Part shown: positions 1 to 64,000 of the stretch, piece after piece | Numbering within the stretch: position 1 is the stretch's first letter | Layout of the letters: the number at the start of each line of letters is the position of its first letter | Origin: a phage | Length of the DNA: 64,000 nucleotides | Assembly: GCA_025830695.1 (NCBI GenBank) | Contig: GCA_025830695.1_4111.2 | Reading direction: 5' to 3' (one strand) | Program-made: the position numbers and the translations under genes | Notes under the pieces: model-generated | Databases searched by the model: none | Told to the model about the DNA's origin: nothing | The model's input: only the letters and a program-made list of their open reading frames with translations

Positions 1-1
1 A

Positions 2-343
2 GACTTCCGTGCTATCTTTAATAGTAATGATGATATTCTACCAAGTGGACGTCCACGTCCTGAGTCTTATCTTATGCATCCATCTTATGGTGTAGCAGAT
101 ACGCTTGAACAGATTATGAATAAGTACAAGAACCTAATTGAAGGTCCAGAAGAAATTGTCCTGTGCTATCACCCAGTACTGAAGTCTGAACAACCAAAGG
201 ATGGTGGATGGCGTTGGCATAAGAATGGTGAGTATATCGGTACTAAACGAAGTAAAGAACGTTTTGAGTACTTGTATGATGAGCCAGATGTTGATGTGGT
301 TTTGTGTTATAATTTTATTAAGGTGAAAAAGAAATGTATCTAG
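2..343 (+). CDS. hypothetical protein, 5' end outside window
   Basis: Frame open from window start to stop at 343; track ORF 74..343 is the internal-ATG version. Confidence 0.5.
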   Translation, partial: DFRAIFNSNDDILPSGRPRPESYLMHPSYGVADTLEQIMNKYKNLIEGPEEIVLCYHPVLKSEQPKDGGWRWHKNGEYIGTKRSKERFEYLYDEPDVDVVLCYNFIKVKKKCI

Positions 344-576
344 TACTAAGTTTTGTTGTTGCACTATTGTTTATGTTCTATCCTACACTAGTGGCATTAG
401 CCACTAGACGAACGATGGTAGATCTCACTACTGTATTCTTGCTAAACGTGGCATTAGTACTGGTGTCTATTATCATTCCAGTGAGCTTTACAGTTATTGA
501 TATTATTTCGGTATTACTCTTCGTGTTAAGTTATCTTATGCTTATTGAAGAAACAAATGTTGACAAACGTTCGTAG
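334..576 (+). CDS. small membrane protein (80 aa)
   Basis: ORF overlaps upstream stop; hydrophobic throughout. Confidence 0.5.
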   Translation: MYLVLSFVVALLFMFYPTLVALATRRTMVDLTTVFLLNVALVLVSIIIPVSFTVIDIISVLLFVLSYLMLIEETNVDKRS

Positions 577-633
577 TACTGTATAATGGTTCCTGTAGTC
601 TGAAACTTAACACTTAAACTTGAGGTAAAAAAT

Positions 634-960
634 ATGCTATCAGTACTAATTTCAATTCCGTCTTTAATTCTGATTTGGCTTCTGGTTTACGAATGCTTCA
701 TTACTGATGATAATGATAAAAAAGAGTTCTCTGAGTTGTTTATGCTTGATTCACCAATTGTACGTATTTTCTATACAGTCGTTGTGGTTTCAGTAATTGT
801 ATGGGTTTTGAGTTTTATCTTCCCACTCGGTGCAGTAGTTAAAACTTTGGATTTAGTTGAGAACTTTGTTGCAATTATGTGGCTAATCAAAGCACTATTT
901 GCAGGAAATGTTAAAATTTGGATTGATATTATCAAATTCAAGTTCACGAATAAGATGTAA
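634..960 (+). CDS. small membrane protein (108 aa)
   Basis: GAGGT SD upstream of ATG; two hydrophobic segments. Confidence 0.55.
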   Translation: MLSVLISIPSLILIWLLVYECFITDDNDKKEFSELFMLDSPIVRIFYTVVVVSVIVWVLSFIFPLGAVVKTLDLVENFVAIMWLIKALFAGNVKIWIDIIKFKFTNKM

Positions 961-1038
961 CAGTCAAAATACCTCTATAGTATTAAATACTTCTGTACTA
1001 TATATATGTACAGAAGTATTTCTCGTTAGAGGTTTGTT

Positions 1039-1398
1039 ATGAAAAGTTATATAAAATTAATAGCACTTGTGTGTGCATTATTTTCATGTTTTAGTTATGG
1101 TGCAGCAGCAGAAACATATTGTCGTAGTACTAAGGGAACGTGGCATGTATTGACTAACGACCCTAGAAATGGTAAAAATATAGTTGTTGATGGTGTGATT
1201 TATCGTTTTAAAGTAGAAAGTATTATCGGTAATAAAAAAATCTCGACTTATAGAGATGATTCTGGTACATTAGCAAACGTAATATTAATTGTAGACCCAA
1301 GAACTGGTAATGGTGATATCTATATAGTAATTTACTTGGACTCATCGGTACGCCGTGACCTAGATATAGATAAATTGAACTTACACTGTGAAATATAG
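1039..1398 (+). CDS. small secreted protein with signal peptide (119 aa)
   Basis: N-terminal MKSYIKLIALVCALFSCFSYGAAAE signal-like sequence. Confidence 0.6.
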   Translation: MKSYIKLIALVCALFSCFSYGAAAETYCRSTKGTWHVLTNDPRNGKNIVVDGVIYRFKVESIIGNKKISTYRDDSGTLANVILIVDPRTGNGDIYIVIYLDSSVRRDLDIDKLNLHCEI

Positions 1399-1409
1399 GA
1401 CTTAAAAAA

Positions 1410-1787
1410 ATGGTAAACACTATTTTACTTTTGTTGTTGAATATTCCAATTATTCTGTCTTTTTTAATTTCTATTTTTATGGCAGGATATTGTTTAGTTG
1501 CAGTAATTCATTTCATTTTAACAAACAAATATGTCCTAATTTCTAAGCTTGATTCTATTTTTGCTTGCGATTCGATTGCTTATAACTTGTGGTTAATTTG
1601 TTCTTGCATTATGGGAGTAACTTTCCTTCTGCATGTATTTGATGTCCTTGACCAAAAGTTCGTATATATCAGTACTGGATTGGCTCTTTATCCTGCTACG
1701 TGGTATTTGATTTACGTTGGTGATATATGGTATAGTACTTATAAAGAATATCAGTACAAGAAATCACTTAACGTTGGAGGAAAATAA
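1410..1787 (+). CDS. membrane protein (125 aa)
   Basis: Multiple hydrophobic segments; same-strand array. Confidence 0.55.
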   Translation: MVNTILLLLLNIPIILSFLISIFMAGYCLVAVIHFILTNKYVLISKLDSIFACDSIAYNLWLICSCIMGVTFLLHVFDVLDQKFVYISTGLALYPATWYLIYVGDIWYSTYKEYQYKKSLNVGGK

Positions 1788-1789
1788 TC

Positions 1790-61743: not shown

Positions 61744-61802
61744 CTTGACAGTACTTTTCATTACTGATATAGTACACTAACGTTAATCATAGGGTAAAAA
61801 TT

Positions 61803-62048
61803 ATGTTAAATTTTTTAAATTTCCTTATCGTCTTGTGTATTGTTCTTGGGATTGCACCATTTGTATTGTATTTCATGGATTCAGATGAAATGCAGAAGAT
61901 GAATTGCACAAGGACAGGACAGAGTAGAGTAGAGACGATTCTTATGCCTGTTACGGTTATTGTTAACAACATGCCCATTACAAACATGGTCCCTACCCTA
62001 ACGACAACGTACCAGTACTCTTGTGCTGACGGAGAGAGGTGGAGATGA
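61803..62048 (+). CDS. small membrane protein (81 aa)
   Basis: N-terminal hydrophobic helix. Confidence 0.5.
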   Translation: MLNFLNFLIVLCIVLGIAPFVLYFMDSDEMQKMNCTRTGQSRVETILMPVTVIVNNMPITNMVPTLTTTYQYSCADGERWR

Positions 62049-62365
62049 AATTTAATATAGCAAAAACATCGAGTATATGTATTTTTGGTTATGCTGATGA
62101 GTTAGGTGATATTGACATTCTTTTGTACAAAAAGGATGGTGTTATGCATTTCAAGTACCAGGATGAAGAGGCAGACAATTATCCTTTACCTAATTTAGTA
62201 CAAATGCAGGAAGATGAATTATTCCAGTACAGCTTAGTATACGACATTGATATTTGCACGATGCCAGTACTAATTAGTATTCAAAAAGTGATGCTCGATA
62301 TGTATGATAAGCTAATACAAGGTACATCAGGGAGAATCATTGAAATCGATATACAAGACAATTAA
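62045..62365 (+). CDS. hypothetical protein (106 aa), EEYFQ-like family
   Basis: ATGA overlap; EDELFQYSLVYDID. Confidence 0.5.
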   Translation: MKFNIAKTSSICIFGYADELGDIDILLYKKDGVMHFKYQDEEADNYPLPNLVQMQEDELFQYSLVYDIDICTMPVLISIQKVMLDMYDKLIQGTSGRIIEIDIQDN

Positions 62366-62558
62366 TCAAGAATGGAAGACCCAAAAGTACAGGGAATTCA
62401 ACAGGAATTTTACAAAAGATGCATTGAATTTAAAAACAACAGAGTTTGATATGTTTATTTTTCTTGGAACACGTTCACAAGAACAATTTGTTCATTATTA
62501 TATAAATTCGTTGCGAACGGAGATAGTATGCAAAACACAGGGTATTATAAAAAGGTAA
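62340..62558 (+). CDS. mini-protein, array B-like
   Basis: FLGTRSQEQFV. Confidence 0.5.
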   Translation: MKSIYKTINQEWKTQKYREFNRNFTKDALNLKTTEFDMFIFLGTRSQEQFVHYYINSLRTEIVCKTQGIIKR

Positions 62559-62794
62559 ACCAATATTTGTACGCTACAAAGTACAGGGATTTTTGTTTAA
62601 AGGGTGGTGATGAAGATTTTTCTTTGCGATTATCAGAATTTAATCTGTTATTTTATCTTGGTACAAAAGAACAAGAAGAAATGGCACAGAAATTTATCAA
62701 GCACCTTTTACAAAAAATTAATATGCAAATTTTGATGCTTAAGTTACAGAATGAGATAAATGAATATGAATCCAGAAATAGTTCAGGATCTTAA
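62528..62794 (+). CDS. mini-protein, array B-like
   Basis: YLGTKEQEEMA. Confidence 0.5.
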   Translation: MQNTGYYKKVNQYLYATKYRDFCLKGGDEDFSLRLSEFNLLFYLGTKEQEEMAQKFIKHLLQKINMQILMLKLQNEINEYESRNSSGS

Positions 62795-63152
62795 AAAAGT
62801 AATATTTCTTTTGAATACCAGAAGTGAATTGTATACAGAGTTAAAAGAGATTAATGCATTTTATCAGAATTTTGTAATCCAAGAGATCAGTGATTTAATT
62901 ACAGATGCATTATTTGAATTATCGGAGAAATACAAAGGTTCAGAGTTCAGTGTTAAGAATGTTATTCGTCCAAGTGCAAGGAAAATTATATTATCACATT
63001 TTACATTTGACAATAAAGATTTATTCAGTCATAATCCAAGTACAGCTTTATATTTTATTCCTGATTCAGACAAAAATCATCCTATTCATTACGGATGGAT
63101 TTTGTCATATATAGTACAAGGAAAGGAGTATCCTATTAAATGGAAAGATTAG
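62760..63152 (+). CDS. hypothetical protein (130 aa)
   Basis: Complete ORF overlapping upstream gene. Confidence 0.5.
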   Translation: MNMNPEIVQDLKKVIFLLNTRSELYTELKEINAFYQNFVIQEISDLITDALFELSEKYKGSEFSVKNVIRPSARKIILSHFTFDNKDLFSHNPSTALYFIPDSDKNHPIHYGWILSYIVQGKEYPIKWKD

Positions 63153-63300
63153 GGCGATTAGATTATTACACAATTAATACAAATTATTTGTTGCGTAATA
63201 TAAAATCCGATTACAAAATATGGATAAAGAACAGAGATAGCATGTGTTATGAATTTTATTTAGATTATGCTATCAAACGATTTTTAAGAGAAGAACATTA

Positions 63301-63504
63301 ATGCAAAAGATTAATACGATAACATTAAATGCATTACAGGATTCATTATTAGATAGTATTAAGATGTATTACAATATACATTTGAAGGGTGGTATTGATA
63401 ATTACGATTATTATTTGAGTTTAATTACATTTGAGCACCTTTCAGTACAGGACAGGATTTTACATCCTACAAATCCTAGGTATCCATCGATAGGTAAATT
63501 ATGA
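63301..63504 (+). CDS. hypothetical protein (67 aa)
   Basis: Complete ORF. Confidence 0.5.
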   Translation: MQKINTITLNALQDSLLDSIKMYYNIHLKGGIDNYDYYLSLITFEHLSVQDRILHPTNPRYPSIGKL

Positions 63505-64000
63505 ATGAGATAGAGTTATTAGCACACAAGATAAGTACAATAATGCTTATCCTCAATAACAACCATCCTATATCGCATATAGATGGAATCCTGAGTCAGA
63601 GGACAGGTGGTAGTTTATATTTGTCCATAAACGCAGATATCGCAAGGAAATACATTGATATTGATGTTGAAATCGAATATGATACAACGGGGATTGTTGA
63701 TGTAGGTGCATTAATCAGTTCAAATCCAGTATCAGCATCCCCATTGACCAAAGATGTTAGTACAGGATTCGAAGGATATTTGTGGTACAATACCAATGAT
63801 GATTATTTTATATATCAGCATTCCAATACAAATTATGATGAAGACAAATTTCAGTTCATAGACCCTTATGATGAAGCTGAAGTATTTCAAAAATCATTAA
63901 TCACAAAACCGCATGAGATGATGTATCTAATGTTATTCAGTACAATGCATTTGAATCCATTAATTAAAGGTTTAAAATTTTATATTCAATTAAATTTAGT
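63501..64000 (+). CDS. hypothetical protein, 3' end outside window (>=166 aa)
   Basis: ATGA-coupled ATG at 63501; no stop to window end; absent from track. Confidence 0.5.
   Translation, partial: MNEIELLAHKISTIMLILNNNHPISHIDGILSQRTGGSLYLSINADIARKYIDIDVEIEYDTTGIVDVGALISSNPVSASPLTKDVSTGFEGYLWYNTNDDYFIYQHSNTNYDEDKFQFIDPYDEAEVFQKSLITKPHEMMYLMLFSTMHLNPLIKGLKFYIQLNL

Follow-up and report, generated by a model that had tools for sequence, protein, structure and literature searches.

The closest known phenomenon to the one described here is the cyanobacterial HIP1 palindrome (GCGATCGC), which resides in cellular chromosomes and includes the target of known methyltransferases. Other described systems bear on particular aspects of it. 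In the KorA and KorB operators of RK2, a single element serves many promoters from set positions beside the -35 and -10 hexamers, and phi29 p6 and SPO1 TF1 combine genome-wide binding with control of early promoters. In this study, we analyzed a stretch of 64,000 nucleotides of phage DNA (contig GCA_025830695.1_4111.2 of GenBank assembly GCA_025830695.1), hereafter the window, for which an original prediction had proposed that the palindrome AGTACT is over-represented about tenfold and is a positively selected site. Phages are noted for avoiding short palindromes, whereas this restriction-type hexamer is 10-16-fold in excess throughout a jumbo-phage supergroup and also in a prophage-like element unrelated to it. 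The pattern points to a sequence-specific factor that acts across the genome and has yet to be described.

Results

AGTACT is the only enriched palindrome in a palindrome-avoiding genome

By megablast, the window belongs to Asteriusvirus, the group of Escherichia coli jumbo phages that includes 121Q, PBECO4, G17 and Sharanji; identity is 97-99% across its mosaic parts and no record is identical to it. AGTACT occurs 275 times between positions 1 and 64,000, against 21.9 ± 4.3 copies in 100 dinucleotide-preserving shuffles of the window, the largest of which held 34. The excess is thus 12.5-fold, far beyond about twofold of expectation, and agrees with the original estimate of about 20 expected copies; chance and base composition are ruled out as its cause. 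The extended palindrome CAGTACTG, also predicted to be in excess, accounts for 59 of the copies (0.78 ± 0.89 expected, or 75-fold for the octamer), and a further form, TCAGTACTGA, for 13. When all 4096 hexamers are ranked by z-score, AGTACT is first.

Among the 64 palindromic hexamers, AGTACT alone is enriched, the runner-up reaching 1.7-fold, and 24 are missing from the window altogether, although about 108 copies of them would be expected in total. The tetramer GCGC is likewise absent (0 versus 47 expected), and GATC is not enriched (125 versus 171). The missing palindromes, whose avoidance had been assumed as the usual state of phage DNA, obey the ordinary rule and point to very strong avoidance of restriction sites in DNA that is apparently unmodified; AGTACT breaks the rule. 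Hence, this genome combines strong palindrome avoidance with one extreme exception. DNA of the related phage fEgEco12 is cut normally by ten restriction enzymes (PMC13070987), which makes general hypermodification unlikely.

The excess extends through genes. Sites in coding DNA use all three reading frames, as had been predicted (77, 40 and 65), and the 180 copies within genes compare with 53.3 ± 5.7 when every gene is shuffled synonymously, a 3.4-fold difference, and with 24.7 ± 4.9 under codon permutation. Both protein sequence and codon choice are therefore bent toward AGTACT, and together with the spread over three frames these shuffles rule out a codon or amino-acid effect. Noncoding DNA is richer still, with 8.1 sites per kb versus 3.5 in coding DNA. 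Nor do the sites descend from a dispersed repeat or mobile mini-element of the REP or MITE kind, because the 275 copies fall into 238 independent contexts after similar flanks are collapsed, and the information content of the flanks is approximately zero beyond ±4 bp.

The flanks are symmetric and the near-neighbors are enriched

Around the hexamer lies a weak symmetric consensus, TTnC-AGTACT-GnAA. C precedes the site (position -1) in 118 of the 275 copies (binomial p ~1e-23) and G follows it (position +6) in 134 (p ~1e-30), whereas G at -1 and C at +6 are disfavored; T at -3/-4 is matched on the other side by A at +8/+9. The same symmetry is present among sites that lie wholly within genes. 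These preferences are evidence for selection at the level of double-stranded DNA. Moreover, C at -1 and G at +6 occur independently of each other (59 joint occurrences versus 57.5 expected), the pattern anticipated if double-stranded DNA is contacted in an equivalent way at two half-sites.

Most sequences that differ from AGTACT by one base are themselves enriched 1.3-2.7-fold, including the transition products AATACT and AGTATT (1.7-fold). This fits the decay of selected sites and does not fit a repair drive that turns neighbors into AGTACT. The observation bears on the possibility that AGTACT is a by-product, either of a duplicated early-promoter cassette or of a neutral mutation or repair bias of the very-short-patch type. 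Some promoter cassettes are indeed near-identical copies, two flank clusters hold 11 sites each, and noncoding DNA has 2.3 times the site density of coding DNA. However, cassette duplication does not account for some 180 in-gene sites in all frames or for 238 contexts overall, and a repair drive should deplete AATACT and AGTATT. For these reasons, and for others that follow from the distribution of sites, we consider a by-product very improbable.

Sites occupy fixed positions in early promoters

A direct terminal repeat of 20,993 bp has experimental support in fEgEco12 (PMC13070987). When it is mapped here, its limits lie at about 35,135 and 54,594, and the window runs from the last part of the unique region (1-35.1 kb) through the terminal repeat into the first 9 kb of unique DNA beyond it. 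The repeat (approximately 35,135-54,594, plus strand) carries some 50 small early genes with individual promoters and is the densest part of the window, with 127 sites or 6.5 per kb, compared with 3.7 per kb to its left and 1.8 per kb to its right. Nearly every intergenic gap in it consists of a sigma70-type promoter followed by a conserved hairpin in the 5′ untranslated region (UTR).

The placement of AGTACT within these promoters, which the original prediction had put at -35 flanks and in spacers, is restricted. In 45 plus-strand promoters of the TTGACA type, the site starts at -7/-8 relative to the -10 hexamer in 14 cases, at -17/-18 in five and at -30/-31 in three, and at no intermediate offset. 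The forms observed are AGTAC|TTGCAA, AGTACT-A-TTGACA, TTGAC|AGTACT, AGTACT-G-TATAAT and AGTACT-GG-CATAAT, the last of which yields an extended -10 element. Paired sites within one promoter are 20-22 bp apart, and apart from these pairs the spacing of AGTACT has no helical periodicity. For example, the promoter at 39,563-39,595 (plus strand) holds two sites 20 bp apart, AGTAC|TTGCAA, in which a T is shared with the -35 hexamer, and AGTACT-G-TATAAT. That at 42,287-42,322 (plus strand) reads AGTACT-A-TTGACA-N9-AGTACT-GG-CATAAT. Its two sites are separated by 22 bp, and the second contributes the TG of the extended -10.

The design AAA-AGTAC|TTGAC(A)...(C)AGTACT-G(G)-(T/C)ATAAT recurs at three further loci whose DNA cannot be aligned with the window. 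It is present at 19 of 26 promoter-like sites in RaK2, at 20 of 27 in a jumbo contig of 359,777 bp, and at 22 of 34 in a Munch/7t3-like contig. Across the window and these three jumbo lineages, a dyad-symmetric element is thus held at conserved positions, -7/-8, -17/-18 and -27 to -31, as would be expected of an operator. This conserved coupling suggests that AGTACT has a role in early promoters and is not merely a passive passenger.

The predicted richness in sites of a stretch poor in open reading frames (ORFs) was also confirmed. This region, 34,833-36,757, contains the left boundary of the terminal repeat, 18 copies of AGTACT, 11 of the 59 copies of CAGTACTG, and sigma70-like promoters on both strands. 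Among the latter is a consensus promoter, TTGACA-N16-TATAAT (35,451-35,478, plus strand), with a copy of CAGTACTG at 35,465-35,472 directly 5′ of its -10 hexamer. The same region carries iteron-like repeats (34,947-35,017 and 35,895-35,986), in which GTAATCAT is repeated about five times and GGCTAGACG/GGCTAAACG units about four to six times; these could be linked to a genome end, to packaging or to an origin.

Two further elements were noted. A second promoter class lies inside terminator hairpins (GGTTGACTTCGGTCAGCC-T5-TATAAT) and is devoid of AGTACT. In these terminator-promoter units, found on the plus strand at 2333, 5575, 5758, 8461, 12965, 14247, 44157, 47854 and 53116, the hairpin GGTTGACTTCGGTCAGCC includes the -35 sequence TTGACT, and its T-run extends into TATAAT. 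In addition, a stem-loop, GGGGAGAAnnGTTCTCCCC, is conserved between early promoters, whose start region is TACAT, and ribosome-binding sites over 37-54 kb of the window (for example at 39,605-39,625 and 43,515-43,535). It has no Rfam match and may be an RNA element of the 5′ UTR.

The excess outlives sequence similarity among jumbo phages

Comparison with related phages and with host DNA had been proposed as a check. Relative to G17 (97.7% identity), 92% of AGTACT sites are retained. Relative to UE-S1 (88.2% identity), 65% of sites are retained versus 54% of all hexamers, and per-base identity is 92.2% within sites versus 88.1% outside them. Single sites are thus mildly protected and turning over, while their density is kept. 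In 121Q the excess is genome-wide, from 6-fold in the replication and structural core at 1-50 kb to 9.7-fold at 200-250 kb; that core replication and structural regions still show a 6-10-fold excess also speaks against a by-product.

AGTACT is 16-fold over expectation in RaK2, 11-12-fold in CBB, 11-fold in GAP32, 9.5-fold in a 371-kb metagenomic relative, and 9.2-fold in Yersinia phage fHe-Yen9-03 (Eneladusvirus). The rule at position -1 (C enriched 2-3.3-fold, G at 0-0.5-fold) is common to 121Q, RaK2, CBB, GAP32 and the metagenomic relative. Both the excess and the flank rule thus persist across at least four genera, although their DNA has diverged beyond alignment. Measured densities range from 1.5 to 4.7 sites per kb, which extrapolates to roughly a thousand or more sites per genome, most of them inside genes. 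No excess is present in 27 T4-like phages examined at a homologous denV locus (0-2-fold) or in 50 kb sampled from E. coli K-12 (3 copies versus 4.8 expected). PA5oct, a distant Pseudomonas relative, has one copy versus 7.8 expected in the segment examined (positions 100-125 kb), and no substitute palindrome.

Conserved site-free blocks and a polar variant of the site

Between 54,461 and 59,826 (plus strand), a region of tandem tiny paralogous ORFs contains no AGTACT and 11 copies of TGTACT. A gap of this size has a probability of about 1e-10 at the mean site density of the window. It opens no more than about 140 bp from the point where the terminal repeat ends, immediately ahead of the sigma70-like promoter without AGTACT that heads it (TTGACT-N16-TAAAAT; 54,631-54,658, plus strand), and fEgEco12 has the same boundary of a site-free block at the end of its terminal repeat. 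The homologous region of 121Q (155.5-159.6 kb, 82% identity) is also free of sites. A second block without AGTACT extends over 161.8-169.4 kb of 121Q, and its start corresponds to the last 1.7 kb of the window (62,272-64,000, plus strand). The two blocks are separated by an island (59,827-62,271, plus strand) with 17 copies of AGTACT and some of AGTACA.

The DNA of these blocks is found only in Asteriusvirus and has the same palindrome avoidance as the rest of the genome, which indicates that it is resident DNA and that a uniform mutational process cannot explain the blocks. No genome-wide bias could leave conserved site-free blocks of 4-8 kb that share this avoidance, and a very-short-patch-type mutational drive is ruled out by the blocks together with the enrichment of AATACT and AGTATT. 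By-product models in general are largely contradicted. Significant avoidance of AGTACT within the blocks is not demonstrable (0 copies versus 2.3 expected by composition, P = 0.10). Zero sites is the compositional expectation, and the blocks are therefore best described as exempt and not as demonstrably purged. Eight of the 11 TGTACT copies in the first block fall at one Ala-Val-Leu position of the paralogues, encoded as GCT GTA CTn. All eight tandem paralogues keep this form, and the synonymous codon GCA, which would create CAGTACTG, never occurs there in the window or in 121Q.

In the second block, a polar hemi-palindrome takes the place of the palindrome. Over 62,197-63,944 of the window, reaching into the end of the island, there are ten copies of AGTACA, all on the plus strand and about 12-fold over expectation. 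In the complete 7.6-kb block of 121Q there are 41 copies, an 11.6-fold excess at the usual site density, versus none of TGTACT. These copies are spread over all three frames and over varied contexts, retain the usual flanks, and lie on the plus (sense) strand throughout. Hemi-sites show no strand bias over most of the window, and their bias in this block is complete. No current model fully explains the substitution.

The polar block is best fitted by the idea that the selected unit is an oriented single-strand word of approximately CAGTAC(W), comparable to Chi and read by a translocating helicase-nuclease or other motor. The palindrome would then present the word on both strands, and unmodified phage DNA would be protected or marked from either direction, while host DNA lacks the word. 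Consistent with this idea, the sites are dense, occur in all frames, and are kept as a density with weak conservation of each site, as short Chi sequences are known to be; no excess was seen in sampled host DNA, the two flanks behave independently, and the single-orientation block keeps the usual density and 5′ flank. Known Chi sequences are not palindromic, however, and neither the fixed promoter offsets nor the lack of orientation bias beyond the AGTACA block would be anticipated. No cognate nuclease was found among the domains of the window ORFs. On balance, a Chi-like word seems to us a doubtful explanation.

A second carrier in Leclercia

A scan for paired copies of CAGTACTG over 2.9 million viral contigs recovered the jumbo lineage and a family of contigs of about 31-35 kb with 42% G+C. 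In this family AGTACT is 12-18-fold in excess, with 3-5 evenly spread sites per kb, and the same flank rule applies, with C at -1 in 59% of sites and G at 0.3-fold; the same palindromes are absent. Its genes encode a siphovirus head and tail, including a lambda-like tail module, terminase, portal and capsid. The element sits integrated in Leclercia chromosomes, as in Leclercia tamurae H6S3 (NZ_JAMHKS010000078.1, 1-17,000), and the AGTACT excess ends sharply at the host junction, the sampled host flank showing no enrichment. A GTPase gene of one such contig (2,826-3,938) contains no AGTACT. Further contigs from IMG/VR have an 8-17-fold excess and no DNA similarity to either main lineage; one of them encodes a tail fiber like those of E. 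coli phages. They may be parts of further jumbo-phage genomes or represent other lineages of carriers.

Searches with blastp and tblastn found no non-structural protein in common between the Leclercia element and the jumbo phages. The sole exception, a GIY-YIG homing endonuclease, matches T4-like phages. Either a common host or mobile factor is responsible, or the signature arose twice; with no shared protein found by these comparisons, a host factor or convergence is conceivable.

One candidate explanation is a host protein of Enterobacterales, for example a nucleoid-associated or division-control protein, that is exploited or titrated by AT-rich invading elements. The carriers with known or inferred hosts are all associated with this order (Escherichia, Klebsiella, Cronobacter, Pectobacterium, Salmonella-type, Yersinia and Leclercia), the Pseudomonas relative PA5oct is depleted, and two unrelated elements obey one flank rule without sharing a protein. 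Moreover, E. coli SlmA binds a site with the same core. The SlmA site, GTGAGTACTCAC, has the core AGYRCT with G, T and a purine at positions 1-3, mirrored at positions 10-12 (PMC3020112). These flank needs are opposite to the preferences found here, where C is favored and G disfavored at -1 and T is favored at -3, and GAGTACTC does not occur in the window; on these grounds we rejected the SlmA-binding sequence. The absence of enrichment in sampled host DNA, and of any excess in T4-like phages that grow on the same hosts, also argues against a host reader. We know of no other enterobacterial protein with specificity for an AGTACT site. Taken together, these observations make a host factor improbable.

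Candidate enzymes

The hexamer has the symmetry of type II restriction sites, and AGTACT might accordingly be the target of an enzyme: a methyltransferase that tunes early promoters or labels phage DNA, following the logic of HIP1, or a nicking or cutting enzyme, which could act on a hemi-site such as AGTACA in one strand only. Sites adjoin both promoter hexamers (-35 and -10), positions at which methylation could alter contacts with polymerase, DNA methyltransferases are encoded in the jumbo lineage, and a strand-uniform block of AGTACA would be readily understood if an enzyme acted on a single half-site. The sole methyltransferase examined is a C5-cytosine enzyme of 286 amino acids from 121Q. 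CpG methylation was reported for RaK2 DNA from bisulfite results (PMC3622015), from which the 121Q enzyme is probably a CpG methylase. AGTACT contains no CpG, and this enzyme is unlikely to be its cognate. Further points against an enzyme are that the window ORFs encode no methyltransferase or nuclease domain; that GGTACC and CGTACG are both absent from the window, which argues against general protection of GTAC; that C-to-T changes are not markedly over-represented where sites were lost; and that a self-cutting site would be selected against unless protected. An enzyme target is possible, in our judgment, but unlikely.

Other candidates within or near the window gave no reader. No restriction-modification genes of the ScaI type were seen among the 149 window ORFs, and no ScaI digestion data were found in the literature. 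A gene called "restriction enzyme" in Escherichia phage CRJP21 was also considered, and the ORF most likely intended (14,305-15,072 of the window) encodes a P-loop NTPase. In that record (OQ708376.1, 310,193-324,442), product names are apparently shifted by about 9-10 genes, with "endonuclease V" and "protein kinase", for example, placed on the wrong ORFs, and its labels are unreliable. Within the terminal repeat, a gene for a ParE-like toxin (84 amino acids, Pfam PF24732) is followed by an abutting ORF of 91 amino acids that overlaps the toxin gene's stop codon by one base (49,387-49,910). The two may form a toxin-antitoxin pair; a regulatory role of the toxin and its neighbor at AGTACT found no support.

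Elsewhere in the window, ten tandem paralogues on the minus strand (18,266-30,525) encode RCC1-repeat proteins of about 400 amino acids each. Such genes are labeled "DNA condensation protein" elsewhere, and the annotation of G17 gives each its own terminator. The window contains no match to Rfam families and no tRNAs.

Discussion

The proposal that AGTACT is positively selected is supported by the symmetry of its flanks, the excess across genera, the fixed promoter offsets, the conserved site-free blocks, and the enrichment of neighboring sequences. The evidence does not discriminate among the three functions that had been suggested for the site, namely binding, modification and cleavage. The reading that we prefer, although tentatively and at somewhat less than even probability, is that a homodimeric protein binds AGTACT, regulating early promoters from operator positions and occupying sites across the remaining genome.

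In this proposal, AGTACT would form the constant center of a recognition site with dyad symmetry that spans about 14 bp (TTnC-AGTACT-GnAA), and phages of the RaK2/121Q type would maintain about one site per 230 bp through selection on density and not on single positions. The reader would be a sequence-specific DNA-binding protein in contact with two equivalent half-sites, probably phage-borne or otherwise mobile. Early sigma70 promoters present one or two sites directly beside the -35 and -10 hexamers, paired sites being separated by about two helical turns, and there the factor could act like an operator-bound regulator that competes or cooperates with host RNA polymerase. Elsewhere the bound sites may serve as an organizer, a roadblock or a mark of the phage's own DNA. 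The blocks by the terminal repeat would be exempt, perhaps as long promoter-poor operons that need freedom from bound protein.

Several observations weigh against this proposal. A Pfam analysis of the 149 window ORFs revealed no helix-turn-helix, ribbon-helix-helix, methyltransferase or nuclease domain, and no cognate DNA-binding protein was detected among them or found to be shared with the Leclercia element. The lack of any detectable non-structural protein in common with that element weakens the case for one shared reader encoded by phages. Pure binding also fails to explain asymmetric AGTACA on one strand only over a 7.6-kb block, and the promoter positions could partly mirror where free bases exist, some promoter cassettes being duplicated.

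A broader scheme is one that we regard as unlikely though worth stating. AGTACT and CAGTACTG would be a dense, orientation-neutral label of "own DNA" in unmodified phage genomes, read by a DNA-binding or nuclease-controlling factor that thereby handles phage and host DNA differently and is also wired into the control of early promoters. The label would be polar, as AGTACA, in one block, and its origin or spread in the Leclercia element would be independent of that in RaK2-type jumbo phages.

A factor with genome-wide reach could explain how jumbo phages time early transcription or tell their own DNA from that of the host. The motif also provides a simple computational marker for this lineage in metagenomes. 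The papers that we searched on Asteriusvirus, RaK2, CBB, Sharanji and fEgEco12 make no mention of AGTACT, and to our knowledge no phage counterpart that combines promoter coupling with exempt blocks has been described.

Comparison with known systems

Each of the known systems shares some properties with AGTACT. Chi sites and DNA uptake sequences are likewise kept as a density, in all frames and with weak conservation of each site, but they are asymmetric, orientation-biased and enriched in the host, whereas AGTACT is palindromic, is not enriched in sampled host DNA, and is polar only as AGTACA in one block. The SlmA-binding sequence has an identical core and dimeric readers, and its opposite flanks exclude the AGTACT sites from that class. 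The Dam system offers a precedent in which a short palindrome beside promoter hexamers could tie promoter activity to methylation; unlike in that system, there is no evidence here of methylation at AGTACT, and GATC itself is not in excess. KorA and KorB operators, p6 and TF1 involve tens of sites or little sequence specificity, compared with approximately a thousand or more exact hexamers, mostly in genes, for AGTACT.

HIP1 comes closest. Like HIP1, AGTACT is a short palindrome that is at least tenfold over-represented in the window, occurs genome-wide and in all frames of coding DNA, and is shared by a lineage in spite of sequence divergence, with excesses of 9-16-fold in 121Q, RaK2, CBB, GAP32 and the Yersinia phage. 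Unlike HIP1, it is carried by lytic jumbo phages and one prophage-like element, takes fixed positions in promoters, and gives way to sharply bounded exempt blocks.

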